Shown: positions 16,346 through 40,776, numbered from the stretch's first letter. The stretch: DNA of 64,000 nucleotides from a virus (IMGVR_UViG_3300002835_000026), one strand, 5' to 3'. Numbers and translations: made by a program. Notes: a model not told the origin generated them from the letters alone.

Positions 16346-17404
16346 TTATTTAATAATTCCTGCTATTTTTTGCATTCTTTTGAATGTGTCATTAACTTCT
16401 ACAATAGGTTTTCTTGCCGATGGCATGATACCTGTTGTTTTAGATGCTAAACTAGTTTTCAATGATTCATTAACATGTGATTTAGAAGTTTCTTTTAAAC
16501 CTTCTGATAATGTTTCGAATACTAATTTAGTTTCTTTTACTGTTGATGCTTTATCAAATGCATTTAAAACCTTTACTTTTTGTGACTCGGTTAAGTTTTT
16601 AGCTTTGAAAATTTTGTTAGTGTAAAGTAATTTCGCATTTAACAAATTAACTTCATTGATGTCAGTTCTCATAGTAGCAATAGTTGACATAGCTTCTTCT
16701 AACTCTTTTTTAAGTTTAGTCATTTCTTCTTTGTCTTTCTTGTCTTCTTTGTCACCTTTTTTCTTAGCTTCGTCTAATGCGATTTCAGCTAAAATTTCAT
16801 CAATTGAAACTTCTTCTTCTTCACTTTCCATTTCTTCGCCTTCTTCACCTTCCATGCCTTCACCAGCTTCTAATTCGCCAGATTCAACCATGTCTTTAAT
16901 TACGTCTTCAATGAATGATTTTAACTCTTCTTCAGTCATGTCTTCAATGTTGATTTCTTCTTCAGTTTCAACTTCTTCTTCACCTTCTGCTTCGTTTAAT
17001 TCTTCTTTTTTCATTTCGTCGTCTTCAGCATGCATGTTTTCGTCTTTCATGTCTGCTTCTAATTCAGCTAATAATTCGTCAAGATTAAGTTCATCTAATT
17101 CTTCTTCAGCTACATTACCATGTGCTGTTGGACCTTTTGGGTTGTTGATTAGATCTTCTTCTTCTTTAACTTCTTTGTAGCCCATTAAGTTTTCTTCTTT
17201 TTTAGAATACATTTCTTCCATATCATCCATCTCTGCTTCTTCAACATCCATTTCTTCCATTTCTGCAAGTTTAGCTGATAGCATAGATTTTAATTGTGGA
17301 GTAAAGTGTTCTTCAAGTGCTGCTTTTGCGCTTGCTATTGCTGTTTCTTTAACAACTTTAGCGTCTTCGATTGCTTCTTTAAGCAAATCTCTGTTTTTAC
17401 TCAT
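16346..17404 (-). CDS. Prohead scaffold / core protein (gp22-like); start probably MSKN at 17404
   Basis: Very acidic coiled-coil protein directly upstream of the capsid gene; many L-x-E sites; ends FKRMQKIAGIIK. Confidence 0.75.
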   Translation of the reverse strand: MSKNRDLLKEAIEDAKVVKETAIASAKAALEEHFTPQLKSMLSAKLAEMEEMDVEEAEMDDMEEMYSKKEENLMGYKEVKEEEDLINNPKGPTAHGNVAEEELDELNLDELLAELEADMKDENMHAEDDEMKKEELNEAEGEEEVETEEEINIEDMTEEELKSFIEDVIKDMVESGELEAGEGMEGEEGEEMESEEEEVSIDEILAEIALDEAKKKGDKEDKKDKEEMTKLKKELEEAMSTIATMRTDINEVNLLNAKLLYTNKIFKAKNLTESQKVKVLNAFDKASTVKETKLVFETLSEGLKETSKSHVNESLKTSLASKTTGIMPSARKPIVEVNDTFKRMQKIAGIIK

Positions 17405-17541
17405 TTGTCCTAAAATTTTGTTTGGGAAATACACTTATTTAAAGTGTAATAGAATTGTTATTTATAGATACTGCAAATGCGATTGCGGGCAGTATATTCT
17501 AATATACATATGTCCAGATTATCTAAAACACACAGAAGTGT

Positions 17542-17569
17542 AAAGAGAAAGCTCTTCTTTTGGAAGAGC
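17542..17569 (-). terminator. Intrinsic terminator after the nuclease gene
   Basis: gctcttc-ttttg-gaagagc hairpin followed by TTTCTCTTT on the minus strand. Confidence 0.65.
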
Positions 17570-17575
17570 CATGTT

Positions 17576-18169
17576 TTATTTACAATTACACTTAAACGTG
17601 TTTAAGTCTTTTGATGTAGGGGCAATGTTAAGAAAATAATAACAATACTTAGTGTTACCTACTTTTAATTCTTTATAGAATCCTTTAGGTATTGCCGCGT
17701 TTGTAGGTACACGTTTAGGTACTTTATCGTAATCTAATCTAACATATACTGATACAGTAGTTGTTTTTGCTTGTTCACGTTCCCATATTTCTAATGCTTT
17801 CCAAGGACCACGATTAAGTGATTGTTGTTGCATTGCTGAATTAATATAGGTAAATGTTGAGTATAACATTTCTTTAGTACAGTTAAATGAAGCAGCAGGA
17901 GCAATATGTCCTTTGTCCCACTCATTATTAACATAATCTTCGTTATCAGATGTTTTAATGTTTTTGTCTGTGTAGAATTCCATACCTGCTCTAGAAGCGG
18001 TACCTGTAGGACATTTAACAGTATAAGTAACCCATTTAGGTTGTTCTAAAATTTCAGAATATACAATACGAAAGTTAGGAGTTTGATAGTTAACACTATC
18101 TCTTAATTTAGTTTGTCCAAAAACTACTGTTGATAGGCAAACTAATATTACTAGAAATAAATTTTTCAT
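17576..18169 (-). CDS. Secreted DNA/RNA non-specific endonuclease (NucA / Endonuclease_NS family); start probably MKNLF at 18169
   Basis: DKGHIAP (DRGH-type) active site, STFTYINSAMQ...LNRGPWKALE, IPKGFYK; signal peptide MKNLFLVILVCLSTVVFG-Q. Confidence 0.9.
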   Translation of the reverse strand: MKNLFLVILVCLSTVVFGQTKLRDSVNYQTPNFRIVYSEILEQPKWVTYTVKCPTGTASRAGMEFYTDKNIKTSDNEDYVNNEWDKGHIAPAASFNCTKEMLYSTFTYINSAMQQQSLNRGPWKALEIWEREQAKTTTVSVYVRLDYDKVPKRVPTNAAIPKGFYKELKVGNTKYCYYFLNIAPTSKDLNTFKCNCK

Positions 18170-18170
18170 G

Positions 18171-18776
18171 TTAGAATAACGGACATGATCCATTAGCACA
18201 TAGAATATCAGTAATAATTGAATTAATTTTACCGTATTGATTTGTACCTGGAGTATATGATTCGTTTAAGTTGGTTGGTTGCATCCATGAACCAGGATTA
18301 GAAGGTGTTGAAACAAAATCCCAACATAGTAATTCAAAGTCATCTTGTACTTCCATTACATTACCTTTTTGTTCTAACGAACCCATTCCTCTTGATGATA
18401 CACCTACTGTAATACCACTTTCAATTAATGCTTTTAAGATGTTACCAGATGGAGTAGGTAAAATTTCAATTAAACCCATTACATTATCTCCATTCCACCA
18501 GCATTTTTTAATATTATGTGAAACATTTTTTAAGTTAATAATTGAAGAATCTGGGTGGTCTAATTCACCTAATGCTCTGTTTTCTCGAACTGATTCCATG
18601 TAGCGATCCATTTCACGTTCCCATAATTCTTTAGCGTAATATCTACCATTACCGTTTTTTACTTCGACAGTAGCTAACACACCTTCTACTAATATGTTAC
18701 CTCCAGGATTAGTTCCTTCAGTTAACCTAACAGCTTTAGGAGAAAATAATTGTGTTTCAATTAATACTTGTCTCAT
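18171..18776 (-). CDS. gp21: Prohead maturation protease, T4 gp21-like
   Basis: NGNGRYY, GELDHP, VSH, TPSGNI, GVSSRGMGS, DFVSTPS. Confidence 0.93.
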   Translation of the reverse strand: MRQVLIETQLFSPKAVRLTEGTNPGGNILVEGVLATVEVKNGNGRYYAKELWEREMDRYMESVRENRALGELDHPDSSIINLKNVSHNIKKCWWNGDNVMGLIEILPTPSGNILKALIESGITVGVSSRGMGSLEQKGNVMEVQDDFELLCWDFVSTPSNPGSWMQPTNLNESYTPGTNQYGKINSIITDILCANGSCPLF

Positions 18777-18782
18777 ATTACG

Positions 18783-20120
18783 TTAATTTGTATTTCTATT
18801 ACTTATAATTTTTTCAATTGCATTTTTTCTTCCTCCAAATCCCTTAACACCTTGACCACTTAATATATCTCTTAATTCATCATCTGTTATATTACGATCA
18901 TTAATTTGCTTTTGGTATTTCATTAACAACATGTTTTCAGATCTATTATCTGCCTCTTTACCTAACTCTTCAGGTGATCGCTTTAATGGTGTTACATCTG
19001 GGTTTGAAGAAGGTCTTGATAATATATCTCGGTCATGAATACCTTCTTTAATAGTTTTAGCTTTAGGTAAATCACCATATCCGCTTGACTTATATTTACC
19101 TTTAGGTGCAATTGTTAATTTTTCAGTTTTAAATCCTACTCCTTTAGTTCCAAACATAGCATTTTTAGCATAATAGTTTATGTCTTTAACCATGTTTTTA
19201 AGTACAATTTGTTTTAACTCATCAACTGTTTTAGTTTTGTTTTTAGGATCTTTCATTTCAGCATAGTAGCCATTTAAGAAAGATGTACCATAAACATTAT
19301 CAATATTTTTCTTATCTTCAGTATTATATTGATCAGCTAAATCTTTTTTAACTTGTTTAGATGGTTTTTTAAACTCATCATAATCACCATATAGTTTTCT
19401 ATTTGGAACACCAATGACTTCTGATAATGTTTCTTCTTTAACTGGTCTTAACAACATTGGTTTAGTTACAAATAACTCTCTACCATCTTCTGTCTTGCCT
19501 TTAATTTGTTTAATTTTGCCATCTACTTTATCTACTAAAGTAATTTCTACTTTATCATCACCAATCATAGCTTTATCACCAACTTTAACTTTAGAGCCAA
19601 ATGATAAATCACTATGTGAAGTACCTAATACATCACCTTCATTTGTATTTAAAAGAGGTTTTATATCTTGTGTAAATATTTCAGTTTCAGTGAATTTCTT
19701 TCCATCAGCCATTATAATCATATCAAGATCTTCTTTTTTAAGTTCTCCTGATTTAAGAGCATTAAATAAATCAATAGCTCTAGTGATGTTTTTATCATTT
19801 AATAATTTAGCACCTCCATTACGCTTTATCATACCTACAGCCTGCCCAAAGGGACCATCAGAAGCTGAAGTCATATCTACTGCCTCATTACTTGTATTTT
19901 CTCTAAAAATTTCTAACCAAGATGATGATGGTTTGTGACTAATTACACCACCAATACCTTCACTTAAAATACTTTTTGATTTAAGTACACTTATAGTTGT
20001 ATTATAATCAGAATATTGATTAATATAATTTGGAAATAAAATTCTTGCTTGTTTTAAGAAATGATCTTTGTTTCCTTTTCCTTCTTTAATAAGGATGTAT
20101 TGTTCTTGTAATGTTTTCAT
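18783..20120 (-). CDS. Hypothetical head-associated protein with CTS-like N-terminus (MKTLQEQYILIKE)
   Basis: 445-aa ORF in the head cluster; several [LI]-x-E sites. Confidence 0.6.
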   Translation of the reverse strand: MKTLQEQYILIKEGKGNKDHFLKQARILFPNYINQYSDYNTTISVLKSKSILSEGIGGVISHKPSSSWLEIFRENTSNEAVDMTSASDGPFGQAVGMIKRNGGAKLLNDKNITRAIDLFNALKSGELKKEDLDMIIMADGKKFTETEIFTQDIKPLLNTNEGDVLGTSHSDLSFGSKVKVGDKAMIGDDKVEITLVDKVDGKIKQIKGKTEDGRELFVTKPMLLRPVKEETLSEVIGVPNRKLYGDYDEFKKPSKQVKKDLADQYNTEDKKNIDNVYGTSFLNGYYAEMKDPKNKTKTVDELKQIVLKNMVKDINYYAKNAMFGTKGVGFKTEKLTIAPKGKYKSSGYGDLPKAKTIKEGIHDRDILSRPSSNPDVTPLKRSPEELGKEADNRSENMLLMKYQKQINDRNITDDELRDILSGQGVKGFGGRKNAIEKIISNRNTN

Positions 20121-20133
20121 TTATAATGAGTTA

Positions 20134-20358
20134 TTAATTGTAAAATAATACTGCTCCTGATGATAAAGAAGCACTAGTTACATAAATAGGAACAGTGAAT
20201 CCAGCGGGTACAACCCAAGGAGTTGTTAATGGAGATCCATTAAAATCTTTTATACCAGTGAATGTAGCTGATCCTGATACTACTGTAAAGCCAGCGTATG
20301 AACCAGTGATTGATGTTGTAGTTACTATTCCGGTTGTATTAACAGGTATATTTGCCAT
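20134..20358 (-). CDS. Small beta-rich virion protein (possible capsid decoration)
   Basis: 74 aa, Thr/Ser/Gly rich, in the head cluster. Confidence 0.55.
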   Translation of the reverse strand: MANIPVNTTGIVTTTSITGSYAGFTVVSGSATFTGIKDFNGSPLTTPWVVPAGFTVPIYVTSASLSSGAVLFYN

Positions 20359-20359
20359 A

Positions 20360-21196
20360 TTAGTCTTTAAATAAGTTTATTAAATCGTTTAAATAATCGT
20401 TTGCTAAATCAGTACCATATAACACATTAAAACTAGGTTTATCTTTATAATAATTTAATGTTTTTTCTTTTGCGTTTTGTAATAATGGTAATAATTCGTT
20501 TAATTTTTGTTCTAATGTATCAAATCCTTCTAATCTAGATTTGATAAATATTTTTAATTCTGGTGTATCTATGTTTAAAGAATCAATATAAGCATCTACA
20601 TCTAATTGTGCTTCGTTTACATTCTCTTTCCACATTTGTTTAACTTCGATTCCTTTCGCCTGTTGATTCAGTTTTTTTTGATTAACAGGTTTGTAACCTA
20701 GTTTATAGTAATAGTTATTTGTTGTGCCTTTAGAATTAGTATTTTTTTTATAAGCTGCATCTGTACCTGCTTTTGTAGCTGTTTGTGGTCCTTCACCTGG
20801 ACTAAATGCCCCTGCTGATGCTCCACCTCCTGTACCTGACTCTTCTTCTAAATCAATATTTAAATTGTTAAATTTTTCTTGGTTATAATTATCTAAATAT
20901 GGTTTTAAATCTTGTTTCCAAACTGCGGTTTGTGAAAAAGCTATATTATCTGCTTGTCCATGCTCTCCTTGTGTAGCTTTATCTAAGTCTTGGATAGTAA
21001 TTTTACCAGTCTCCATAGCTTTTTTAAATGTTCTAAATTCATTAGATGGGCTATAGATTTCTAGTTTATTTTTTAATAATTCTTTACCACCAAAAAGCCA
21101 AATCCACTGAAGAGCTGTATCAAATTGTCCGTCAATACCTTTATGAATACTAACTTCTTTTAATGTTTGTTTAATGATACTTTTTAACTTATCCAT
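20360..21196 (-). CDS. Hypothetical head-cluster protein
   Basis: 278-aa ORF; N-terminal KLKSIIKQTLKE motif. Confidence 0.6.
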   Translation of the reverse strand: MDKLKSIIKQTLKEVSIHKGIDGQFDTALQWIWLFGGKELLKNKLEIYSPSNEFRTFKKAMETGKITIQDLDKATQGEHGQADNIAFSQTAVWKQDLKPYLDNYNQEKFNNLNIDLEEESGTGGGASAGAFSPGEGPQTATKAGTDAAYKKNTNSKGTTNNYYYKLGYKPVNQKKLNQQAKGIEVKQMWKENVNEAQLDVDAYIDSLNIDTPELKIFIKSRLEGFDTLEQKLNELLPLLQNAKEKTLNYYKDKPSFNVLYGTDLANDYLNDLINLFKD

Positions 21197-22043
21197 TTAC
21201 CTTATGTAATTCTTCTAGTAATTCATAATAATGAAGTAAATTAGTCATATCATCATTACTAATTTTATCATTTTTATCTAATGTAACTAAAATATTAGAC
21301 ACCTCATTAATTTTAATTTGAGTTGTCTTATCTTTAACTTTTTTATTTAATTTAGTTAAATTAGATTTAATTTCTGTTACTTTAGTATTGTAAAAATCTT
21401 TTAATTTAGATGGATTATCAACACTGTTGATAAATTCTTTTAATACTGATTTTTGTCCTTCATTTAAATTAGCATACTTAGAATTAAATTTTTCTAATAA
21501 CGCTCTATAAGTTAACATACGAATATCTTTATCGTATGACTTAAATTCTTCCATTAGTGTATCTTTAGCAACTGTTGTAAGTGGTGCTGAAGTTAAATGT
21601 TCTAATAGAATTAATTTATTTGAGATTACTTGGTTAGCTTCTGGTTGATTAATACCATCATACATTTCTAATAATGTATAAAACGCTGCTTGTGTTTTGT
21701 AGTTAGGAAGTTTGGTTTTAAAAAATTCATCAACGTCATAATTTGCTTTAATTTCTTTAATTAAATTATATTTTTGACGACGTAATGCTGATTTGTTTAA
21801 ATATTTAGCACTTTCTAATAAAGTACTGATAATAATATCGGCTTTGCCTTCACTTAATTTAATGTTGTTTAACAACGTTTCATATAACTTATACTCTTTT
21901 CCTAACTCTGTTTTTACAAAGTGTTTTTTTAGAATAGTTGCTGCTTTTGAGTCTACGCCTGACAATGTATCAGACGTAATTTGTCTAACTAAAAGTTCAA
22001 ATAAAATGCCAGTATTCTTGTATTTTGAATGTTTAACAATCAT
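21189..22043 (-). CDS. Helical hypothetical protein downstream of portal (possible prohead core component)
   Basis: 284-aa ORF preceded by the late-type motif. Confidence 0.6.
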   Translation of the reverse strand: MIVKHSKYKNTGILFELLVRQITSDTLSGVDSKAATILKKHFVKTELGKEYKLYETLLNNIKLSEGKADIIISTLLESAKYLNKSALRRQKYNLIKEIKANYDVDEFFKTKLPNYKTQAAFYTLLEMYDGINQPEANQVISNKLILLEHLTSAPLTTVAKDTLMEEFKSYDKDIRMLTYRALLEKFNSKYANLNEGQKSVLKEFINSVDNPSKLKDFYNTKVTEIKSNLTKLNKKVKDKTTQIKINEVSNILVTLDKNDKISNDDMTNLLHYYELLEELHKVNG

Positions 22044-22058
22044 TCCTAAAGTGTTTTA

Positions 22059-22068
22059 TTATAAATAT
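22059..22068 (-). promoter_or_regulatory. Putative late promoter ATATTTATAA
   Basis: Recurrent motif upstream of start 22043. Confidence 0.6.
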
Positions 22069-22078
22069 ATAAGGATTA

Positions 22079-23956
22079 TTATTCTCTAATTTGGGATTCA
22101 TCTAATAGCGAATCTCCTGGTTTTTCTTGACTAAGACATAATTTTTTGTCAACTTGTTCAAACAAACGTTTATTTCTTGCGAAAGCTGACTTAGCATTTT
22201 CTAAAGCAAACGGTTTGGTTGTTGATTTACCATATCCTGGTTGGTCATCTGATTTCATATCTTTAACACCTAATCTATCACGACCTAACGCGCTATCTTG
22301 TGTGTTAATATTAGATACTTTTTCTTTTGGACGACCTAATTGTGTATCATTATTATATCCTGGTGGTAATTCACCTTCTGGTCTGCCGTTTTTACTATAT
22401 AAACTGGCTAAATCATGTGGTGTACCATAAGATTTACCTGTTTCTACTGGATCATTACCTTCTTCTTTAATTTGTGCGATTCTAAATTCACGTTTTGCAT
22501 CTTCAATCATCATATCTCTATATTCATCATATGAATCTTCAGAGAATCTGAATACATTGTCATAAACCCAATCAGTAGGCATTAATTTAGTTTCAATGAT
22601 GTTTTTAGCTAAATCAACTTTTTCCTTCATTAACATAATACGTTCTTGATCATATATAATAGACGGTGTGGTTAACGATAACTCGAAGTTAGTTAATTCA
22701 TCATTAGTATAACCTTGAACATATAAATGTACTAATGCGATTTTATATAATTCAGACAATGTAATACGTTGAATACGATCAATTGTACGAGCAAAACGAA
22801 TATCTTCCGCTGCTAATGTTGCTTTACCTTGTAAATCTTTATCATAACCTAAAAATGCTTTAGGTACCTTTAATGCTGCAAATAATTTATCTCTTAAATA
22901 TGCAACGTCTTGAATACCATCGTAATCTAAACCTTTAGTATTTTCAATACGTGTTGCTTGGTCATTACCTCTTACTGGAATATAAAAATCTTCTAGTAAG
23001 TTTTGCATGTTATATTTTACGTTATATTCACCTGTCTTTTGATCCATTAATGGAGTACGTTTCATTGAACTAATAGTTTTCTGCATAAATGCTTCAACTT
23101 CATTAGGCGGGATAGAACCAACATTAATAAAGAAAGTACGTTTTTCTGGTGAACGAACTACACGATGGATTAACATTGCATCTTCCATTAACGCGTATTG
23201 TTTATATAAACGACGAGCTGGTTCTAGATAAGATCTACCATATGGTAAATAATTAACATCTGTAATTAATCTAAAGTGAGCAACCTCATAGTTTTCAAAG
23301 AAAATACCTGGTTCGTTTTGACGGCCTAAATTAGGTGTATTGTAATAACCATCACCTGATAAAAATCCTTCAGGTTTAAATTGGAAACGAACAGACGCTG
23401 GTTTGTCTTTATCATAATTTTCTTGTCTTTCAATATGATACGCTGTGTATGGAATAACATTATATACACCAAATTTTTCAGCAATTTCTAATCTTAAGAA
23501 AAAATCACCATATTTACACATTTGACGAATCCAAGACCATAAATTAAATTCGATATTTAATACATCATAAAATAAGTTATATAAAATTCTTTGAATGTTT
23601 TCATCTGATGAACGAATAGATAATACTTCACCCATATCATCTTTTAATGTAGACTCATCAGCTACAATATCAAGTGCAGAACCAACAATTGCATCCTGAT
23701 CCATGATATCATAGTCTGAATATAATTGGGTACGTAAGTATTGATAATTTAAATTTAATTGAGCTCCATAAAGTGAAGATGCATTAGTTGAATAGATTCT
23801 ATTATATCTATCCATTAATGAGTTAGTAGCGATATCACCTGTTTGTTGTATGGTGTTAACGTCCATTACTTTTAATTGATCACCACCCTGATTTCTCATC
23901 ACTACATCAGTAGAGAACAGTCGTTGTAATCGTGAAAATAAGCCTTTGTCTGCCAT
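22079..23956 (-). CDS. gp20: Portal vertex protein, T4 gp20-like
   Basis: GRSYLEPARR, LMEDAMLIHRVVRSPEKRTFFINVG, LEDFYIPVRG, KLFAALKVP. Confidence 0.93.
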   Translation of the reverse strand: MADKGLFSRLQRLFSTDVVMRNQGGDQLKVMDVNTIQQTGDIATNSLMDRYNRIYSTNASSLYGAQLNLNYQYLRTQLYSDYDIMDQDAIVGSALDIVADESTLKDDMGEVLSIRSSDENIQRILYNLFYDVLNIEFNLWSWIRQMCKYGDFFLRLEIAEKFGVYNVIPYTAYHIERQENYDKDKPASVRFQFKPEGFLSGDGYYNTPNLGRQNEPGIFFENYEVAHFRLITDVNYLPYGRSYLEPARRLYKQYALMEDAMLIHRVVRSPEKRTFFINVGSIPPNEVEAFMQKTISSMKRTPLMDQKTGEYNVKYNMQNLLEDFYIPVRGNDQATRIENTKGLDYDGIQDVAYLRDKLFAALKVPKAFLGYDKDLQGKATLAAEDIRFARTIDRIQRITLSELYKIALVHLYVQGYTNDELTNFELSLTTPSIIYDQERIMLMKEKVDLAKNIIETKLMPTDWVYDNVFRFSEDSYDEYRDMMIEDAKREFRIAQIKEEGNDPVETGKSYGTPHDLASLYSKNGRPEGELPPGYNNDTQLGRPKEKVSNINTQDSALGRDRLGVKDMKSDDQPGYGKSTTKPFALENAKSAFARNKRLFEQVDKKLCLSQEKPGDSLLDESQIRE

Positions 23957-23974
23957 TTTATTATATGTTATTAA

Positions 23975-23984
23975 TTATAAATAT
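23975..23984 (-). promoter_or_regulatory. Putative late promoter ATATTTATAA
   Basis: Recurrent motif upstream of the portal gene. Confidence 0.6.
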
Positions 23985-25947: not shown

Positions 25948-26221
25948 TGTATTTAGTTTTATATAAATCGGCTTTATATTTTAAACCCGATAATTTTGTT
26001 TTATCTTCTGTTACTTGTTTTTTATAAACAGCAGTAACTGAATCTAATTGGGCAATTTTAATTTTAGTAGAGTCAATATTTGCCTGTAATGAATCTATTT
26101 TATTATTTAATGTTTCGTTTTCTTTAGCCAAACGGAAATTAGGATTAATGTTAAGAATATTTACAATTAATAACACTAATCCTATGTATCCTAAAAATTT
26201 AAGAATTTCTTTATACAACAT
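25874..26221 (-). CDS. N-terminal TM plus coiled-coil protein; i-spanin-like
   Basis: FLGYIGLVLLIVNIL TM followed by heptad repeats; start probably MLYKE at 26221. Confidence 0.5.
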   Translation of the reverse strand: MLYKEILKFLGYIGLVLLIVNILNINPNFRLAKENETLNNKIDSLQANIDSTKIKIAQLDSVTAVYKKQVTEDKTKLSGLKYKADLYKTKYNEEHNRINNLSNDALVSEFTNAFN

Positions 26222-27257
26222 CAAATTCAAATTTATCCTTTAATGCTTCTAATTCTTTCTTTTGTGCTGTTTTTTCTTTTAATTTAGCAACAATATTTGC
26301 TTTTTCTTCGCCTTCAGCTTTTTTATAGTCGTTAGCTAATGTCTTCATTTCTTTTTCTACTTGAATTAAACCTTTTAATACTTTATCTAATTTAGAAGTA
26401 CGTTTAGTTAATTTATCAGCAGCTTTAGATGCTTGTTTGTCAATATCTGTTTCGTCTGGCGCTGAGTCTTCGTCTCCTGCTTTATAGTAGTCATCAGCTT
26501 CTTCTTCGCCTGTGTTAATATCTTTTTCCACTGCTTTAACTGCTTTTTCTATTTTTTCTTTAGATGGTTTAACAACCGCTGCTTTTGGAGCGGCTCCACC
26601 CATTGATACTACACCTTTATCTTTTAACATACCCATTAATTCTCTGAATTTAGGATTGTTAATACTAGCTGTATCATTTAAACCAAATTCTTTAGCTACA
26701 TCAGCAACTGACATTTCACCTTTTTCTAAAAGATATTCTAATGCTTTTTTAACATTACCTTTAGCTTTTTCAATTAATGAAGCTAATTCATCTTTCATTT
26801 CTTTATTTAAAATGTAAGATACTTTAGCACGAGCCATTTCATTTAAATCATTTTCATTATTAGATAATGACATCATTAAATCTTTTAAAAGATATTTAAA
26901 ATCTTTATCTTGTAACCATCCTCTTGTATGAGCATAATAATCATAAACATCTTTAACTGAGCTTAATTTTTTAATATCCTTAATAAATTCATCTGGATTT
27001 GGAGATACTTCTGATTCAAACTCATATACTGTTTGTTGTAATGGAGTTAAATCATTAACTTCTTCAGCTACGGCTATGGATTGTCCTGATTTTTTAGCTT
27101 GATCAATTGCTGCTTTAACAGTAGCAGTTGATGTTTTTTCTGATTTAGCTATTGTGTTAATATCATCAGTTGTTGTTTGTGGACCTACCATAGTAGTTTC
27201 ACTTAATGCACCTATGATTTCTTCACGTATAAAAGATTTAAATTCTTTGATTTTCAT
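26211..27257 (-). CDS. Hypothetical modular protein with an HTH-like segment; probable capsid cargo
   Basis: MKIKEFKSFIREEI N-terminus; GEMSVADVAKEFG HTH-like; late motif at 27270-27279. Confidence 0.6.
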   Translation of the reverse strand: MKIKEFKSFIREEIIGALSETTMVGPQTTTDDINTIAKSEKTSTATVKAAIDQAKKSGQSIAVAEEVNDLTPLQQTVYEFESEVSPNPDEFIKDIKKLSSVKDVYDYYAHTRGWLQDKDFKYLLKDLMMSLSNNENDLNEMARAKVSYILNKEMKDELASLIEKAKGNVKKALEYLLEKGEMSVADVAKEFGLNDTASINNPKFRELMGMLKDKGVVSMGGAAPKAAVVKPSKEKIEKAVKAVEKDINTGEEEADDYYKAGDEDSAPDETDIDKQASKAADKLTKRTSKLDKVLKGLIQVEKEMKTLANDYKKAEGEEKANIVAKLKEKTAQKKELEALKDKFEFDVV

Positions 27258-30521: not shown

Positions 30522-30527
30522 ACTAAG

Positions 30528-30598
30528 GTGGCCCACCTTTTTTAGGGTGGGCCACAGCTCCATAATGTTTTATAAAATCGACAGGCTATGAATCTGTC
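30528..30598 (-). ncRNA. Candidate structured RNA: small pseudoknot followed by a 10-bp GC-rich hairpin
   Basis: GACAG/CUGUC stem whose loop UUCAUAG complements downstream UUAUGGA; GUGGCCCACC/GGUGGGCCAC stem. Confidence 0.45.
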
Positions 30599-30611
30599 TG
30601 TATGTTATTTA

Positions 30612-31217
30612 TTATTTAAAGAATGACATATTATTATTAACAGCATATAAAAAATCTTGAGAAAATTTATAAGCTTGTTTAATTCTTTTCCCCATATATT
30701 CTTTATCACCCATAGGTTTTCCTTGGTGTACTGAATTGATAAAAGTAATTAACATATTTTTGTCTACTTCTTCTTCTTTACTTGTTGTATTGATTTTATT
30801 TAAATAAGATATAGCTATATCAGGTGTTGTACTTTTTATTGCTTTTACCATAGCATCATATGCTTGTGTATTTGACATTTTATTTATATCAGCTGTGTTT
30901 CGTTTTGCATATGAAACCGGCATTTCAGTTTTTACAACTTGCTGGATTGATTGTTTTTGGTCTTGAGAAAAACCTGGAGATGCTAACAATGATGATAATA
31001 TAGCAGCAGTCATTAAGCCTTTTTTAGCATATGATTTAATTTTTTCTAATACATCATCAAATACTCCTTCATTTAATGTATTAATTATATCATCAGCTAT
31101 TTTTTGCTCTTCTGGTGATAAAGTAGTTTCTTGAATATCTTCTCTATATTTACTTTCAGTAATAATCCCAGCAAGTTTTTGCATACGGATAAATTGCTCG
31201 TTTAATGGTTGCTTCAT
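30612..31217 (-). CDS. Hypothetical capsid-cargo protein with N-terminal RMQKLAGI and an internal hydrophobic segment
   Basis: MKQPLNEQFIRMQKLAGIITE; GLMTAAILSSLLASPGFSQ. Confidence 0.65.
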   Translation of the reverse strand: MKQPLNEQFIRMQKLAGIITESKYREDIQETTLSPEEQKIADDIINTLNEGVFDDVLEKIKSYAKKGLMTAAILSSLLASPGFSQDQKQSIQQVVKTEMPVSYAKRNTADINKMSNTQAYDAMVKAIKSTTPDIAISYLNKINTTSKEEEVDKNMLITFINSVHQGKPMGDKEYMGKRIKQAYKFSQDFLYAVNNNMSFFK

Positions 31218-31219
31218 TA

Positions 31220-31459
31220 TTATTTAATTTTATTAAGTAATTCTTTATGATACATGTTAACAGCAGTTTCTAAATTTTTAAGATCAGCATCATCAGCTGT
31301 GTTATCTCTTTCAAATTCACGCAATTTGTTTAAATACTGCTTAATAACATTTTTTTGTCCTATGTTTATAGGACTATCATTTCCGGACATTTCCTCATTT
31401 ATTTTAATTCCCGCAATTTTTTGCATTTTTATAAATTGCTCATTTAATGGCTCTTTCAT
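31220..31459 (-). CDS. Small hypothetical protein with N-terminal KMQKIAGI
   Basis: MKEPLNEQFIKMQKIAGIKINE, paralogous to the N-terminus of its neighbour. Confidence 0.65.
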   Translation of the reverse strand: MKEPLNEQFIKMQKIAGIKINEEMSGNDSPINIGQKNVIKQYLNKLREFERDNTADDADLKNLETAVNMYHKELLNKIK

Positions 31460-31483
31460 TTTTTATATATTTTTAATTTTAAA

Positions 31484-32596
31484 TTATATTCCTGCTAGTT
31501 TTTGCATTCTAATGAATTCTAAAGATAAAGATTCATTTATTGCTGATGGTGATTTTATATTTTTTACAATAGAACTTATAGACTCCCAACTTTCTTTAAT
31601 TAATTCAATTATAGCATATGCTAATAATATATAATGACCAAATTCCCATATCTTTATAAGATCATCTGCGTAAGGAATATAAGCAGAATATTCTTTTATT
31701 TTTTCTTCTACCCAACTCCAAGAAGAGTTAAAAACTCCTGAAATTTCCATAACAGCTGATATAAGTTCTGGAATAACATGAAATTCCATAGCTTTAGGGC
31801 CTCCTATTTTTTCAATAAATTTAGATATTAGTGTTAATATTTTAGAACTTGCCCAAGAACCAGTTATACTTACAATACCCATTACTGGATTTAATGCTAC
31901 TTTTATTATGTTTCCTAACCATGTTTTCCATTTACTATTTTCTTCTGCTTCTAATAAAACATTAGGATTATTTAAATGTTCAGTAGTTTGTTTATTAAAT
32001 ATATTTTCTTGAATATTTTTTCCTGCTTCTTCTGCTTTTGTAATAACTGGTTCAACTACTTTGTCGCCAATAGCATCAATCATAGTACTTGGGTCTTCTA
32101 TTTTACCCTTAAAAAAACTATCTATTTTAAGTATGTGATTTATTTCAGCTATTAAATCATCTCTATCTGGGCCATTTAGTGCTTTTTTAAAGGCTTCTGT
32201 TATTTTATTTTTATTTTTTTCTATTAATCCTTTAATTGCTGTTTTTCCTTTTGAAATAAGATCAGTAAAAGCTTTTTTAATTTGAGCCCAAACTTTTACA
32301 ACATAATTTTTAATTCCACCAAAAGTAGATTTAACTTTTTCCCATCCTGATCTAAACCAATCTGCTATACCTTCGTTTACTTGAGATTCAAATAATACTA
32401 TATTTTTTCTATGAAAACTAGAATGTGATTCAAGATATAAAGATAATGCTTGTTTTTCACCACTAGTAAAATAATCATTATTTGGTATAGATTTAATAAA
32501 TTCTTCTTGAACTATTTTTATAGTCTTAGGTATTAAAGAAAATGAAATTTCCTTTTTTACTTCTTTAATTAATTGTTTTAATTCTGATTGTTTCAC
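31484..32596 (-). CDS. Helical protein with hydrophobic segments and both terminal cargo motifs
   Basis: GTG start MKQSELKQLIKE; ends EFIRMQKLAGI. Confidence 0.65.
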   Translation of the reverse strand: MKQSELKQLIKEVKKEISFSLIPKTIKIVQEEFIKSIPNNDYFTSGEKQALSLYLESHSSFHRKNIVLFESQVNEGIADWFRSGWEKVKSTFGGIKNYVVKVWAQIKKAFTDLISKGKTAIKGLIEKNKNKITEAFKKALNGPDRDDLIAEINHILKIDSFFKGKIEDPSTMIDAIGDKVVEPVITKAEEAGKNIQENIFNKQTTEHLNNPNVLLEAEENSKWKTWLGNIIKVALNPVMGIVSITGSWASSKILTLISKFIEKIGGPKAMEFHVIPELISAVMEISGVFNSSWSWVEEKIKEYSAYIPYADDLIKIWEFGHYILLAYAIIELIKESWESISSIVKNIKSPSAINESLSLEFIRMQKLAGI

Positions 32597-32853: not shown

Positions 32854-32857
32854 TTAA

Positions 32858-34008: not shown

Positions 34009-34009
34009 A

Positions 34010-34327
34010 TTATTTTTCTCTAATTAACAATTCGCCTAATACTTCTAAACGACCAACTTCACGTTGGAATTCATTTTGAGTCATATCTAATGATATTTTT
34101 TTATAGGTTTCATCGAATTCTTTTTTAGCTGCTTCTTTATCAAATTTACCTTTTATAGCTTTTTTATAATAAGATGGTTTCACATTAAAGTGAGTATATG
34201 TTAATAAAGCATCGCCGCCTTTTTCTTTAGCATTAGCTATAATTTTTTCAGCACCTGCTAAACGATTTTTAGCAAATGTTTCAAAACTTTCTTTAGCTTC
34301 AGTTAATAATTGAATAAGATTAATCAT
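34010..34327 (-). CDS. Hypothetical protein with CTS-like N-terminus MINLIQLLTE
   Basis: 105-aa ORF. Confidence 0.65.
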   Translation of the reverse strand: MINLIQLLTEAKESFETFAKNRLAGAEKIIANAKEKGGDALLTYTHFNVKPSYYKKAIKGKFDKEAAKKEFDETYKKISLDMTQNEFQREVGRLEVLGELLIREK

Positions 34328-34767
34328 TTTTTTATTTTTTTAAATGGAGCATATCCTGAACCATATGGAGCTGATTTGCCAGATTGAGGATCTGGAGTTT
34401 CTGATATAGTCCAAGTTTTAGCATCATGTGCTTTTTCTTTCAATTTAAATGTAACAACACCACGAATTGATTTAATATCTTTTTCTACTTTAGTTACAAT
34501 ATTAGTATTGTCATTTAATCCTTTAGGGAATGGTGATGGATCAATTTTAATATCTAAATAAGCATATTCATATTGTGATGATGGATTACCTGACTGATAT
34601 TCTCTGTTATTAACAATAGTTACACCTAATACAGCTCTAACATCAGATAAAATGTATTTCATTTTAGCAACTTTAGGGTTGATAACAATAACACCACCAA
34701 TGGCTAATACCTTTTTTGATGAAGCATATTCTTCTTTAATTGCTTTTTTAATTTCTGATAGTTTCAT
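34324..34767 (-). CDS. Hypothetical protein (start probably MKLSEIKKAIKEE)
   Basis: ORF track 34324..34785; the ATG at 34767 carries the shared N-terminal motif. Confidence 0.6.
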   Translation of the reverse strand: MKLSEIKKAIKEEYASSKKVLAIGGVIVINPKVAKMKYILSDVRAVLGVTIVNNREYQSGNPSSQYEYAYLDIKIDPSPFPKGLNDNTNIVTKVEKDIKSIRGVVTFKLKEKAHDAKTWTISETPDPQSGKSAPYGSGYAPFKKIKK

Positions 34768-34778
34768 AATTGTAAGTA

Positions 34779-35426
34779 TTACCAAAAACCGGTAAAAGTA
34801 GTTTTAAATCCTAATAAGTTTGCGTAACGAGGTAATCTACATGACCAGTAACGTGCTGTTGTTTTATCTTTAGCTTGTGGACAATTCATTCTATCTGAAA
34901 ATGCTTTACGTGCTTTAGGATTGTTTAGTTTTGCTCTTAAAGCTCCACCAGCCATACCAAATGATATTTTTTTAACTTTATCACCGTCTTTAACATAAAC
35001 ATAGAATTTTTTAGATCCACCACGTTTTGGTTTACCTAATGCTACTTCTTTACCTTGGTATTTAGCTTCAGTTATTATTTCCATTAATGGTAAATCTAAA
35101 GGAACAAATTCGCCTTCATATTTTGCCCACCTGCCAATATCAGTACGTTCAAATATTTTTTTATCTGTACCTTGTAATTCAATAATACCTTTAGACCATA
35201 ACATTCTCGCTTCAGTCAATAATTTTTGATGAGCGAAACTGCCTGGGCGATATATATTCTCGGTAAGCTGTATTTTACTGTCTATATGGTAACGCATCGC
35301 CTCAGATATCGCCATATTGTACTGCTTAGACTCTACGAGTAAAGGCGGTGTATCGCAGTGTTTGCATGAATCGGTTACTTTGTAATTTTGCAAAGTTTCT
35401 GAGATAAGTTGTTTTAATTTATTCAT
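34779..35426 (-). CDS. Two-module hypothetical protein with a basic Cys-containing C-terminal domain
   Basis: MNKLKQLISE; ITE|AKY junction; KKFYVYVK...ARKAFSDRMNC...ARYWSC; late motif at 35429-35438. Confidence 0.7.
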   Translation of the reverse strand: MNKLKQLISETLQNYKVTDSCKHCDTPPLLVESKQYNMAISEAMRYHIDSKIQLTENIYRPGSFAHQKLLTEARMLWSKGIIELQGTDKKIFERTDIGRWAKYEGEFVPLDLPLMEIITEAKYQGKEVALGKPKRGGSKKFYVYVKDGDKVKKISFGMAGGALRAKLNNPKARKAFSDRMNCPQAKDKTTARYWSCRLPRYANLLGFKTTFTGFW

Positions 35427-35437
35427 GATTATAAATA

Positions 35438-36463
35438 TTAAATTGCTTTAGCAGTTGAAAATTGCTTTTTAGGATAAAATCCAAATCTTGCGTTTTTAAT
35501 GTCTTGTTGACTCATATTATTTCTAAAAGTGACAGCCATATGTGGTATATATTCTCCAGTTAATTGTTGTGGATATATAAAATAAGCAGGACTAGTTATT
35601 TCAAAATACTCACCTTTATCAATTAATGTTATATTTCCAAAGCATATTAATTCTACTTTATCAATTCCAAAATCTTCACCTAAACCGTAAGATGCTTTTA
35701 ATTTTAAATCATCAGATTTAATATCTCTTTTATAACTGTCTTTATTTTTTAGTTCTCCACCTGATGTTTGCTTAACAGCATCTATAAAGCTTTTAACCTC
35801 ATCATTATTACTTAATTTACTCATTCCTGATAATTGTTGAGATTGAATATCTTTATGTTGGATATATAGATTTTCATCACCCTTAAATATAAAATCAGCT
35901 TGTTTATTACCTGGTATTTTTTCTACTGTAGTAATATTTTTGTATACTTTTTCTCCTACTTTTATATTAATACTTCCACCTTTTTCTTCAATAGCTTTAT
36001 TTAAATTACTTAATTGATAATCTTCAATATCAGCACCAATAGCTTCCATACCTAATACTAAAATTATATCTTTTCCTTCAATAGGAAATTGGAATGCAAA
36101 ATTTCTGCTACTAGGATTTTGGTTATTAGGATTACCTAATTTTGTTGGAGGAAGAATTTTAATATCTTTAGGATCTATATCAAATATATTAGATATAATA
36201 TCTATAAATTCATTATTAGTAATATTCCCTATATTTTTTATACGTTTAGGTCTACTATGAGGACCTAATTTTCCTTTAGCTTCATCTGATGATAAAATAG
36301 TTCTTATAACTTGGGGTGTTGTTATTTTATCTTCTTTTAAACTAATACCTAAATTATTTAGTAATGATTCCATTAATAAAATATCCTGTTCATTTTTCAT
36401 GTCAGGATATCCTTTAGGAAATTTATAAGAATATTGTTTTAAAAACTTATCTAATGGATCCAT
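35438..36463 (-). CDS. Putative PD-(D/E)xK-like nuclease with a separate N-terminal module
   Basis: IED...KQADFIF...YIQHK catalytic-like spacing; N-terminal KFPKGYPD...SLKE segment. Confidence 0.5.
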   Translation of the reverse strand: MDPLDKFLKQYSYKFPKGYPDMKNEQDILLMESLLNNLGISLKEDKITTPQVIRTILSSDEAKGKLGPHSRPKRIKNIGNITNNEFIDIISNIFDIDPKDIKILPPTKLGNPNNQNPSSRNFAFQFPIEGKDIILVLGMEAIGADIEDYQLSNLNKAIEEKGGSINIKVGEKVYKNITTVEKIPGNKQADFIFKGDENLYIQHKDIQSQQLSGMSKLSNNDEVKSFIDAVKQTSGGELKNKDSYKRDIKSDDLKLKASYGLGEDFGIDKVELICFGNITLIDKGEYFEITSPAYFIYPQQLTGEYIPHMAVTFRNNMSQQDIKNARFGFYPKKQFSTAKAI

Positions 36464-36753
36464 TATTTTACTTCAATTTGCTTCAAATTTGAAAATATTT
36501 GAGTTAATAAATTGTCGTCATTTGTTTTAATCATAGCAATCATAGTATCAGCCAATATTTTATTAGCCGCTACATTCAAAGGTTTATTACTTTTTACTAA
36601 ATTAATAGTAGTAGTAAATTTAGAAGGATCAAAACCTTCAACACCTAATTTTTTAAATAAATCTGTTTTGATTTGACCTTGAAGTTTTGGTTCTTCAGTA
36701 GTGACTTCTAAAATTTGTTCTCTTATTAATTTTTTAAGTTCTGATTTTTTCAT
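36463..36753 (-). CDS. Hypothetical protein, N-terminus MKKSELKKLIREQILE
   Basis: 96-aa ORF. Confidence 0.65.
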   Translation of the reverse strand: MKKSELKKLIREQILEVTTEEPKLQGQIKTDLFKKLGVEGFDPSKFTTTINLVKSNKPLNVAANKILADTMIAMIKTNDDNLLTQIFSNLKQIEVK

Positions 36754-36764
36754 AATATTAGTAA

Positions 36765-37253
36765 TTAAATTGTTAAATCAGCAGCTGGAGTTGATTCTTC
36801 AGCTGGACCTGGTTCTGTAGCTGCTTCATCACCTGAATCTTTAAATGATGAATTCGCATCTTTTGAAGCTCCATATGATAATAATCTAGCTATAGATTCT
36901 GTTGCCCGCCCTTCGTCTTTTATATCATTTAGCCAATATTTTTTACCTTCTGATTTACAAATCCATGTAACATCATCATATAGTAAGTAAAAGAATTGAT
37001 TGTTAGCTAATAATATTTTAAATGTTGTTGGTTTAGGTGCTATCCATTGTATTTCACTAACAAAATCTTTATATTGAGTTGTTAGTAATTGAATGATAGA
37101 ATCACGTAATGTAGGGAATTTAGCTAAAATAGGAAACTTATCCAAATCTAAAGAAATATCTGTTTTAGGAACATCTAAATCTATTTTAGATTGGGCTTTG
37201 TAAACTTGTTTTACAATAGCACGTATTCTATTTTTAAAGTCTTCTTTTACCAT
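36765..37253 (-). CDS. Hypothetical protein
   Basis: 162-aa ORF, coupled to its upstream gene. Confidence 0.65.
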   Translation of the reverse strand: MVKEDFKNRIRAIVKQVYKAQSKIDLDVPKTDISLDLDKFPILAKFPTLRDSIIQLLTTQYKDFVSEIQWIAPKPTTFKILLANNQFFYLLYDDVTWICKSEGKKYWLNDIKDEGRATESIARLLSYGASKDANSSFKDSGDEAATEPGPAEESTPAADLTI

Positions 37254-38653
37254 TAGTTTTTATTTTCTTTATTCCAGTCTGATAAACTCATCATGCCTAC
37301 TTCAGTATCATAATCATCATAATAATTATTTTTTACTCGTTGACCTATTTTTTGAGCTTCAGCTTTTGAATTTAAAGTATGTCTTAATTTTTTACCGGTT
37401 TTATCTACATTAATCCATACTACCCACTTTTCACCTTCTGCTGCTTCTTCTTTAACCATTGGTTTTTTAAGTTTAGCCATTATTTTTTCAGATAATGTTG
37501 AGTTTGTTAAAGATTTAACTTCATCCATGTTCTGTGCATTTACAGCGTTAAAAACTTCTTGACCATATTTTGACACTACTTCTTTCTCAGACTTTCCAGC
37601 ATCAATCATTTTTTTAGCCGCAGCAATATCCTGTTTAAATTGTGTTGGTTTAGATGATTTAACTCTATATTTTTCTTGTGCAGGAGTAACTTCATTCATT
37701 GGTTCATCCATTGCTGGAATAATATCTTCGTAATCCTGCATTGACAATGTTTCTTTACTTTTATTGATTTCAATAGCTTTTTCAGCCACATCATGTAAAT
37801 CCATATCCGCTTTAGCGTCTTCACGAGCAAATTCTAACATACGAATAAATAAAGGTACATCCATAGTAACTGTATCTACTGCATCTTTAGCTTCTGCTTC
37901 TTCTTCGTTAACTTCTTCTTTAACTAAACCACCTTTAAGGATAGTCATAATAGATGAGTAAGCATCATCAATACTATAATCATAGTATTTAGCTACACCT
38001 TTAACAAATTGTTCTACTTTTTTTCTTAATTCAGGATTAATACTACCTCCAGTAACAAACATTTGAGCTTTTTCTTCTTGAATCATAGCATCTAAAGCTG
38101 GTTGTTTATCTTCAAATTCTAAATAATGTTTAGCTTTATCCATATAATCAGCAGCTAGATGGATTTTTTCTTGCCACCAATCAGGGAAATCAACTTCTTG
38201 ATCCATTTGATCATATTTATCTAGCATTTTATATAAACTAGCGGCATATTTAGCTATACGATAAACAGATGCTTTTAACATATCTGGTTCATCATCTTGA
38301 TGGCCTAAATCAATATCTTCTTTTGTAGCTTTTTTAATGATTGATTTTTGCAATTCATCAGGTAATGATTTTTGACCACCTTTTAAAGCAGGATCAGTAT
38401 CAAACTCTTTTGAAAATTTTTCATCTACAGGACTCATAAGAGTCTTTTTAATCATTTCACGTACTTTATCTTTATTCATGTTTTCTGCTGTTTTTTTAGC
38501 TATATTAGTAGCACGTCCATACATCACTTTTTCAGCATCTTTACCATAGCGTTTAACTAATGATGATTTTGCGGTTTTAAGTTGCTTAATAACTTCCTCA
38601 CGTTTTTTTAATTCATTAGGAGTTAATGTTTTTTCAGTGATACTTTGTTTCAT
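37253..38653 (-). CDS. Modular hypothetical polyprotein
   Basis: 466 aa; short modules separated by x-x-E sites. Confidence 0.7.
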   Translation of the reverse strand: MKQSITEKTLTPNELKKREEVIKQLKTAKSSLVKRYGKDAEKVMYGRATNIAKKTAENMNKDKVREMIKKTLMSPVDEKFSKEFDTDPALKGGQKSLPDELQKSIIKKATKEDIDLGHQDDEPDMLKASVYRIAKYAASLYKMLDKYDQMDQEVDFPDWWQEKIHLAADYMDKAKHYLEFEDKQPALDAMIQEEKAQMFVTGGSINPELRKKVEQFVKGVAKYYDYSIDDAYSSIMTILKGGLVKEEVNEEEAEAKDAVDTVTMDVPLFIRMLEFAREDAKADMDLHDVAEKAIEINKSKETLSMQDYEDIIPAMDEPMNEVTPAQEKYRVKSSKPTQFKQDIAAAKKMIDAGKSEKEVVSKYGQEVFNAVNAQNMDEVKSLTNSTLSEKIMAKLKKPMVKEEAAEGEKWVVWINVDKTGKKLRHTLNSKAEAQKIGQRVKNNYYDDYDTEVGMMSLSDWNKENKN

Positions 38654-40776
38654 TATCTTAAAATTCTTTTTAACATTGGAAACATATTTTCATTAATTTG
38701 ATTTAATTTACCTTTAGCTTTTTTAGCTTCAGCCATATCAGGATAACTATCATCATAAACATCCATGCTGTCATCATAATTATCATCATTATCATCACCT
38801 GGATTATCTCCAGCATCATATTGATTTAAGAAGTCTTCCAATTTCATTCCTGGATTTTTCTGTATTGCTGTAAACATATCATTTATTATGTCTTCATTGT
38901 CCATATTTGATAAAATATCATATATAGCATCAGCACTATCATCATTTATAGCTTCATTAATTGGAGCTGTATCTAAGATATGAGCTTTAGTAAAATAAGT
39001 AATTGTATTAGCAATTTGAGTAATTAATTTTTCATCACCTAATGCTTTTGCTTCAGCATATGCTGCTTGTAAGTTAGATTGAATACCTGATACTTCAGTT
39101 GTTTTACCAGCCATCATATCTGATTCAGGAGCATCAACTACTTCAGTATCGTCTACTGTTATGTCTTCAACTTCTTTATCTTTTTTAGCTTCACTAAGAC
39201 TGTCATTAGCTAACTTACCCATGTCCACTAAATTTTCTAATTCTTCACGTTCATCATTATTAAGATCTGTGCCATCTTTAAATTTAGCAACAGAAATATA
39301 AACGTCAGAATAATCATTATAAGATCCACCTTCTACTTCAATTGAATTAACATCAACTTCTTTTCCGTTTAACATTACTTTGTTTGATTCTGCTTCTTTT
39401 AAGGTAGTACCATCAGAAATTCCTTTAATACTTGAATGTAACATTGCTAAGAAATATTTCATTTCTATTATTCTATCTTCCATCTCTCTATCTGTGAATT
39501 GACCAAACATGACAAGATTTTTAACTATATCTAAATTCCTAAAAGCAGTTTCTATAGCAGTAACAGTTTTTCTTTCAACATCTTTAGGCTTAGTAAAGTC
39601 CCAATTATCTCCAATAGTAGATATAGCTTCATCTAAAGGATTTTGCAACATATCTTCTAATTTTTCTGCTTCTTCTTCTGATAAACCAGGATAAGAGTTC
39701 ATTAATTCTTCAGCATCATATTCACGCATCTCATCTATAAAAAGATCACCTTTATTTTTAAAATATTTAAATAAAAACTCAGCATCATAGTTGTTGTCTT
39801 CTAATTCTACTTCTTCTGCTTCAGCTAATGGATCATACATGTTATTTAAAGCACCTGGTTCATCAATATCTTCTGTAGAATCTTCATTTAATTCAGCTAA
39901 AATCATTTCTTTGATTTTTGATTTTAGTTTAGATTTAGTCATCTTTTCTTTTTCGATTTCTTCACCTTTTTTAACTCCAGCACCATATATATTTTCTTCA
40001 CCTTTTTTACCTAAACGTTTAGCTGATTTAGCTCTATCATAATCAGTATCACCTTCGCTCATTTGTGTATTATTTAATTTAGATAAATCGTTTGGATCAA
40101 TAACAACTATTAAATTATCAATTTCTTGACCATATCCTATTGGACTATCACCTACTTCATTTTTTACTCCAATAGAAGTTAAATAATTACTCATTTCATC
40201 TGCTAATTTATCTACTGTATTATTTAAAAATGATTTTTCTTTATCTTTTAAATAATCTCTATCACCAAAATCCATAGAATTTTCTATTTCTTTAAAATTA
40301 TCACTGTTAGTAACAACTAAATAAAGTTCATTATCTACTTTATAGTATTCAACATTTTTAAATTTACCAAAACTTACTTTTGAATCTTTGTAAGCACCTT
40401 CACCTTCATTCATATCATCTAAGAAAAAGTCTTGACCTGGGAATAAAGTAGCTAAATCAGTTAATTTTAAATTAACTTGATAAATAGATGGAGCCATTTC
40501 TTGGTATACTTCTGAATTATATTTGTCTGCTATAGTTTGGATCATAATGTCATCATTTGATGCAATCATGACTTTGTTTTTTGCTGGGTATACCCAGATG
40601 TCTAGTGTTTCATCAGCATTTTTATTTGGAGGTACCATGTGGTAGATATTATCATCTCCCATGATTCTTTTCCATGATGAAAAATTTAACATGTTAGTAT
40701 TAGATCCTTGATTTTCTTTAATAATACCCGCAAGTTTTTGCATGCGAGCTAATTGTTCATTTAATGTTGGTTTCAT
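38653..40776 (-). CDS. Acidic modular polyprotein with N-terminal RMQKLAGI
   Basis: 707 aa; MKPTLNEQLARMQKLAGIIKE; late motif at 40795-40804. Confidence 0.7.
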   Translation of the reverse strand: MKPTLNEQLARMQKLAGIIKENQGSNTNMLNFSSWKRIMGDDNIYHMVPPNKNADETLDIWVYPAKNKVMIASNDDIMIQTIADKYNSEVYQEMAPSIYQVNLKLTDLATLFPGQDFFLDDMNEGEGAYKDSKVSFGKFKNVEYYKVDNELYLVVTNSDNFKEIENSMDFGDRDYLKDKEKSFLNNTVDKLADEMSNYLTSIGVKNEVGDSPIGYGQEIDNLIVVIDPNDLSKLNNTQMSEGDTDYDRAKSAKRLGKKGEENIYGAGVKKGEEIEKEKMTKSKLKSKIKEMILAELNEDSTEDIDEPGALNNMYDPLAEAEEVELEDNNYDAEFLFKYFKNKGDLFIDEMREYDAEELMNSYPGLSEEEAEKLEDMLQNPLDEAISTIGDNWDFTKPKDVERKTVTAIETAFRNLDIVKNLVMFGQFTDREMEDRIIEMKYFLAMLHSSIKGISDGTTLKEAESNKVMLNGKEVDVNSIEVEGGSYNDYSDVYISVAKFKDGTDLNNDEREELENLVDMGKLANDSLSEAKKDKEVEDITVDDTEVVDAPESDMMAGKTTEVSGIQSNLQAAYAEAKALGDEKLITQIANTITYFTKAHILDTAPINEAINDDSADAIYDILSNMDNEDIINDMFTAIQKNPGMKLEDFLNQYDAGDNPGDDNDDNYDDSMDVYDDSYPDMAEAKKAKGKLNQINENMFPMLKRILR

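Follow-up and report, generated by a model that had tools for sequence, protein, structure and literature searches.

The C-terminal peptide of a phage prohead scaffold protein recurs as a tag on four otherwise unrelated proteins in a 64,000-nucleotide stretch of viral DNA, IMGVR_UViG_3300002835_000026, the whole of which is referred to here as the window. The head module in the window is of the T4 type: genes for a large terminase and a portal are accompanied by those for an S77/gp21-like prohead protease, the scaffold and a gp23-like capsid protein. Every gene of the window is on the minus strand. We consider it likely, at a probability of roughly 0.7, that the tag is a protease-removable prohead address that copies the tail of the scaffold and loads unrelated, fast-changing proteins into the assembling head.

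A six-frame scan of the window for MQK[LIVM]AG returned exactly five occurrences, all on the minus strand, whereas 100 shuffles gave a mean chance expectation of 0.01 matches for MQK[LI]AG. The five are at the places named in a preliminary description of the window, which had proposed that the C-terminal peptide of the scaffold is reused on four other proteins and had suggested a genome-wide motif scan as a check; over the 64-kb window that scan gave the five known copies and nothing further, and looser versions of the MQK[LI]AG pattern yielded no extra site there. One copy ends the scaffold (...IVEVNDTFKRMQKIAGIIK, then the stop codon; core 16358-16375) and another ends a 370-residue protein (31484-32596; ...INESLSLEFIRMQKLAGI, then the stop codon). 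The remaining three begin a 201-residue protein (30612-31217; MKQPLNEQFIRMQKLAGIITE), a 79-residue protein (31220-31459; MKEPLNEQFIKMQKIAGIKINE) and a 707-residue protein (38653-40776; MKPTLNEQLARMQKLAGIIKE). The shared peptide, previously given as eight residues long, is real, but the full shared stretch is longer, at approximately 15 residues, and reads [VL]-N-[DE]-x-F-x-[RK]-M-Q-K-[LI]-A-G-I. The codons for R, L/I, A, G and I vary among the five copies; it is therefore the peptide that is conserved and not a DNA repeat, and selection acts on the peptide. A DNA-level repeat or a shared promoter-tag cassette was also considered as such and ruled out, as the codons differ and the upstream DNA has only AT-rich stretches in common. 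Outside the shared stretch, the bodies of the tagged window proteins have no BLAST similarity to one another, in agreement with the earlier statement that they are unrelated. No paper containing the motif MQKLAGI was found in a literature search.

Each tag is joined to its protein by a potential cleavage site. The specificity of the T4 prohead protease gp21 is (L/I)-x-E (PMC9026906), and the preliminary description had noted an [LI]-x-E site next to each tag; such a site is indeed present on the body side of all five window copies, as ITE in the 201-residue protein, INE in the 79-residue and 370-residue proteins, IKE in the 707-residue protein and IVE in the scaffold. Among 53 unique N-terminal tags, [LIVM]xE starts at the residue directly after AG[ILV] in 42 and within three residues of it in 49, against a background in the same proteins of 0.024 per position (binomial p ~5e-58). 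At the C-terminus of the scaffold, the last residue of the protease site lies seven residues ahead of the M in 48 of 83 scaffolds found by motif scan, and the same spacing holds throughout a second sample chosen by capsid similarity. With gp21-type sites at the junction far above chance and an S77 protease encoded in the window, the tag is probably cleavable, as had been proposed.

The nearest cultured relatives of the virus are Flavobacterium phage immuto, with a capsid protein 55% identical, and Microcystis phage Mel-JY01; Rhodothermus phage RM378 is more distant. In immuto, gp083 bears the tag, with AGIITE at the junction. A direct motif scan of IMG/VR gave at least 119 loci with the motif. 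About two-thirds of the matches listed are scaffold C-termini, and most of the others follow the N-terminal tag pattern MKKQ(I)LSEEFxRMQKLAGI[IL]xE. In related contigs, 35 tagged non-scaffold proteins fall into 29 clusters whose bodies are unrelated by BLAST. C-terminal tags occur on the 370-residue protein of the window and at three further loci (L022, L098 and L113), and internal tags occur at three others (L278, L028 and L029); an internal tag has a site on both sides, for example ...ALNE/SFLKMQKLAGVITE/AQY..., where the slashes mark the putative cleavage points. Tagged genes are often adjacent to one another, and counts based on the 64-kb window and the related contigs range from none to four tagged cargo genes per related genome. 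Two small variants were also seen. One is a tag-only mini open reading frame of 24 residues (MARLNEQYLRMQKLAGIITKNKNK) between two tagged genes (L302, ~9911-9985), and the other is a recurrent small family consisting of the tag plus EEEYKAKLWYKKY, encoded directly after the protease gene (G021; L275/L282).

Changes in tag or body can be followed for two of the tagged proteins. Among the 19 cluster representatives of the family of the 370-residue protein, the tag is mostly C-terminal. One member (P0016) stops before the tag position and so has no tag, and another (P0019) has a decayed C-terminal copy (RKSKVAGP) together with a new N-terminal tag, MKNLQEVNRLQKLAGIQ. The AlphaFold2 model of the 370-residue protein is all-alpha, with a predicted local distance difference test (pLDDT) score of 63, and places both tagged ends outside the helical core; it had no PDB match at E <= 0.001. 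At the locus of the 707-residue protein, close relatives retain the tag and the upstream DNA, and the body is a mosaic of 707, 448, 293 or 268 residues. In this mosaic, a module at residues ~505-616 of the 707-residue protein is common to all relatives (L160, L161, L154 and L016), and the remaining modules are variably present. A search of the ESM Atlas produced no lead on either the 370-residue or the 707-residue protein. The 29 unrelated body clusters and the shift from C-terminus to N-terminus within one family support the portability of the tag well, and the copies at both ends confirm that, as previously claimed, it is usable at either terminus; internal copies occur as well.

The protein whose tail is copied is read as a gp22-like scaffold. 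Its gene is between the S77 protease gene and the gp23-like capsid gene, and the product is acidic and helical with many (L/I)xE sites. It had been described as starting at GTG 17434, but homologues point to ATG 17404 (MSKNRD...) as the probable start. Neither Pfam nor PHROG contained a match, and BLASTP gave a weak one to T4 gp22 (E 0.12) over LN..Y.N...LTESQK.KV. Its N-terminal LLKEAIEDAK resembles MLKEQLIAEAQK of T4, with a plan, LKE..IA[ED]A.K, in common with the N-terminus of T4 gp22. An AlphaFold2 model built on a 41-sequence alignment has a long N-terminal helix, acidic disordered stretches and a helical C-terminal domain at residues 201-302 (pLDDT > 94), followed by a disordered linker of approximately 35 residues (303-338) and the tag as a short helix at 339-347 (pLDDT ~86). 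The C-terminus of the scaffold is thus predicted to be a single helix on a disordered tether and not a helix-turn-helix.

The scaffold tail was further compared in the sample chosen by capsid similarity alone, for which at least 599 matching stretches were found in IMG/VR, 598 of them coding for a relative of the capsid protein; the comparison used the best 80 loci. At these, each of the 79 upstream scaffolds that could be read ends in PI[ILM]E-xND-x-[FV]-x-R-[MWF]-xx-LA[GF], a few further residues and the stop codon, and this plan persists over capsid identities of 66-96%. As an observation on more distant scaffolds, the tail of the T4 protein (...GAEDIVSVYAKVASRF) consists of a protease-type site followed by the tail, as in other distant gp22-like scaffolds. 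A tail of 13-18 residues with hydrophobic-x-K-hydrophobic-A-[GS] after a protease-type site is found in T4, a KVP40-like Vibrio phage, cyanophage S-RIM8, RM378 and a 484-kb uncultured phage (L128 and L140-L143). Reuse of the tail was looked for in RM378, Mel-JY01 and LR756508, and the tail was on the scaffold only, save for one doubtful internal site in LR756508.

The N-terminus of the scaffold has its own counterparts. A second leader, MKKSELKQLIKE (MK(K)SELKQLIKE), contains its own LIxE site; the motif starts four residues after the Met and is found at five N-termini in the window, and relatives have the leader on at least 25 unique genes. Because the pattern used to find it was drawn up with the data already in view, the expectation of 0.32 from its shuffle control is flattering. 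The leader resembles the N-terminus of the scaffold, an internal scaffold helix, the N-terminus of T4 gp22 (MLKEQLIAEA) and the T4 capsid targeting sequence (CTS; MKTYQEFIAEA). The 370-residue protein and three proteins of relatives (L022, L025 and L098) combine the second leader at the N-terminus with the RMQKLAGI tag at the C-terminus, which is the layout of the scaffold itself. In T4 (NC_000866; L128 6118-6927, L138/L139), the CTS of IPII and IPIII (MKTYQEFIAEA) likewise resembles the N-terminus of gp22 (MLKEQLIAEA), the site IAE/A included, and T4 cargo may therefore copy a scaffold terminus too. Tentatively, and at odds somewhat worse than even, the two termini of gp22-type scaffolds may each serve as a general docking peptide, with all T4-like capsid-targeting leaders, the classic T4 CTS among them, having arisen by copying one of the two.

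A mechanism may be proposed in which docking, packaging, cleavage and ejection are modelled on T4. The peptide would be the docking tail of the gp22-like scaffold, a short amphipathic helix on a long flexible tether, and other genes would have acquired copies of it at the N-terminus, at the C-terminus or in the interior. Through such a copy, a cargo protein could occupy the site of the scaffold tail in the assembling prohead; this site would most likely lie on the capsid protein, at its inner face or propeptide, and failing that on the scaffold core. After closure of the shell, the gp21-type protease would cut at the [LIV]-x-E between tag and body. Tag and scaffold fragments would then exit, and the freed bodies would remain in the head and, like the internal proteins of T4, would probably accompany the DNA into the host on ejection. 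The first 60 residues of the capsid protein form a propeptide that holds three LLE sites and is conserved at 0.80-0.88 among 81 relatives, followed within residues 1-70 by a variable, poorly conserved Gly/Ser linker. This propeptide could be the receptor for the tag; it is a candidate, nothing more.

Several points weigh against this prohead address. The presence of the tagged proteins in virions and the removal of their tags rest on inference, and a literature search found no virion proteome of a tagged phage or of immuto. The cargo bodies have no recognisable function in Pfam or PHROGs, either for the window cargo or for ten tagged relatives; these ten, the longest, matched no Pfam family at E <= 0.001, the sole row being a sub-threshold 'PT disordered repeat' (E 0.0008, 19 bits, cut-off 26). 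In several complete or near-complete relatives (G001, G016, G017 and G019) the peptide is on the scaffold only, and reuse on cargo is thus not universal in the clade. Finally, the scaffold tail and the cargo tags do not covary within genomes, the cargo tags staying MQKLAG[IL] beside scaffold variants such as RMRELAGL, RFKKLAGI, RMQQLAGL and RWQKLAGI, and so nothing ties tag and scaffold to one co-evolving receptor. The missing covariation is compatible with a conserved receptor and does not indicate which one.

The alternative closest to a capsid-directed address differs in the receptor. In this case, the tail helices of the scaffold would bundle with each other in the scaffold core, the cargo tags would join them and the cargo would be buried in the core, as is assumed for the T4 CTS. 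The core is as eligible a receptor as the capsid protein. We regard this arrangement as less likely than not, since the scaffold C-terminus contacts the coat protein in the textbook cases of P22 and the herpesviruses, a single nine-residue helix on a 35-residue tether in the AlphaFold2 model is more like a docking peptide than a bundle former, and the strongly conserved capsid propeptide could be the receptor. Nevertheless, a heptad-like hydrophobic stripe (F, M, L/A and I) runs along the tag, and the second class of leader copies the N-terminus and an internal helix of the scaffold, which fits mimicry of scaffold-scaffold contacts. Reviews of T4 also put the CTS-bearing proteins in the core (PMC9958956, PMC9026906).

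The other alternatives give up the address to the head interior. That the tag always adjoins a cleavage motif, and that the scaffold is the main substrate of the protease, would also be expected if the tag were an exosite for the prohead protease, marking substrates for an efficient cut at the adjoining [LIV]xE. This is improbable: the capsid protein is a substrate yet has no tag, many [LI]xE sites of the scaffold are far from the tag, and a substrate must already be within the prohead, so that an address would still be required. Heads of T4 begin on the membrane at the portal, and the helix is amphipathic with basic residues, which could make it an element that targets the membrane or binds the portal as head assembly begins, with the tagged proteins as assembly factors present in few copies. 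This explanation is more improbable again, in that all copies of the scaffold, which is present in hundreds of copies, have the peptide, and the tagged bodies are hypervariable and look dispensable, unlike assembly factors. Clustering of the tagged genes and their mosaic bodies could, finally, mean that the peptide is a functionless passenger of recombination between genes. Its conservation despite synonymous codon changes, its persistence across capsid identities of 66-96% and its constant register with the cleavage site make this hardly credible.

Scaffold C-terminal coat-binding elements, and proteins that share them, are known from the P22 scaffold helix-turn-helix, herpesvirus UL26/UL26.5 and lambda C/Nu3. 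As in those systems, a tethered C-terminal helical element of the scaffold would be the docking part here, with coat binding being putative. The protease, as a second packaged protein, bears the same tail in herpesviruses and lambda, and the tail is cut off at maturation; there it is shared through nested in-frame genes, whereas here it is a free-standing module on many unrelated genes and at either end. Encapsulin cargo-loading peptides and microcompartment encapsulation peptides are also short terminal peptides or helices that can be at either end, are movable between cargo proteins and load a protein shell, which in encapsulins is of the HK97 fold. Unlike the present case, encapsulins and microcompartments have no scaffold to mimic, no portal or DNA and no tag-removing maturation protease; portal, large terminase, scaffold and tail genes are all present here.

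The CTS of the T4 internal proteins IPI-III and Alt was reportedly described by Mullaney and Black in 1996, and it is the closest precedent, one that the preliminary description had not named, making the scaffold-tail tag a variant rather than a new principle. In both, a short terminal propeptide is found on unrelated, fast-evolving proteins with a gp21-type (L/I)-x-E at the junction, the head has gp21, gp22 and gp23 homologues, and the tagged genes are clustered in variable loci. In contrast to the T4 CTS, which is described as N-terminal only, the tag is N-terminal, C-terminal or internal, and its approximately 15 residues equal the C-terminal peptide of the scaffold. The RMQKLAGI tag shows no likeness to MKTYQEFIAE, the CTS confirmed in T4; only the second leader resembles it. 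In T4, the CTS guides proteins of unrelated sequence into the core before gp21 removes it, and the targeting mechanism has been described as still mysterious (PMC9958956, PMC9026906). Terminal head-cargo addresses and hypervariable internal-protein loci are thus already known from T4, and either-end loading peptides from encapsulins and microcompartments. The new elements are the identity of the tag with the scaffold tail, its use at both termini as well as in protein interiors, and its spread across a large group of uncultured aquatic phages.

Table 1. Head genes, tags and second leaders in the window (coordinates counted from its first nucleotide).
Feature	Position	Strand	Evidence
gp22-like prohead scaffold protein	16346..17434 (probable true start ATG 17404)	-	position; acidic and helical (AlphaFold2); weak likeness to T4 gp22
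Scaffold C-terminal peptide IVE/VNDTFKRMQKIAGIIK, cleavage site then tag	16349..16405	-	motif scan; codon comparison; AlphaFold2
N-terminal tag of 201-residue protein, ending ITE	31155..31217	-	motif scan; site scan; codon comparison
N-terminal tag of 79-residue protein, ending INE	31394..31459	-	motif and site scan; tagged orthologue in relatives L093/G008
C-terminal tag of 370-residue protein, INE before tag	31487..31540	-	motif and site scan; family alignment A2
N-terminal tag of 707-residue protein, ending IKE	40714..40776	-	motif and site scan; tag retained in relatives G006-G008
Second leader (M)KQSELKQLIKE, N-terminus of 370-residue protein	32552..32596	-	LIxE site invariant across family
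Second-leader N-termini	36463-36753, 63242-63595, 26211-27257, 34324-34785, 31484-32596		leader search
Second leader elsewhere	C-terminus of 42813-43454; inside scaffold, residues ~165-176		leader search
Prohead protease, T4 gp21 type	18171..18776	-	Pfam Peptidase_S77 2.6e-31; PHROG head maturation protease 4.8e-56
Major capsid protein, gp23 type, conserved 60-residue N-terminal propeptide	14641..16317	-	Pfam Gp23 7e-74

Three further genes of the window, all on the minus strand, were recorded. Between the prohead protease and the scaffold is an untagged DNA/RNA non-specific endonuclease (17576-18199; Pfam 3e-23) with a signal-peptide-like N-terminus. A 1127-residue protein (43871-47254), encoded in the block of small, unknown genes that also holds the tagged proteins but itself without the RMQKLAGI tag, contains a cytidylyltransferase-like domain that passes the Pfam cut-off, along with weak, sub-threshold matches of nucleotidyltransferase and ADP-ribosyltransferase-like type. 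Downstream of the head module is an open reading frame of 3522 residues (31-10599).

Overall, the proposed address peptide can be seen to match the tail of the scaffold itself, and this offers a concrete hypothesis, namely that cargo competes with the scaffold, or sits beside it, at one receptor. From sequence alone, the tag predicts which hypervariable proteins of an abundant group of aquatic phages are packaged and probably injected, and such packaged proteins are likely to be counter-defence factors. It also offers a loading address that would be workable at either end of a protein. If both scaffold ends do act as docking peptides, then the unexplained targeting mechanism of T4 would be scaffold mimicry, either-end tags would be available for loading foreign proteins, and a search for copies of a scaffold terminus beside a protease site would yield a list of injected proteins for hundreds of uncultured phages.

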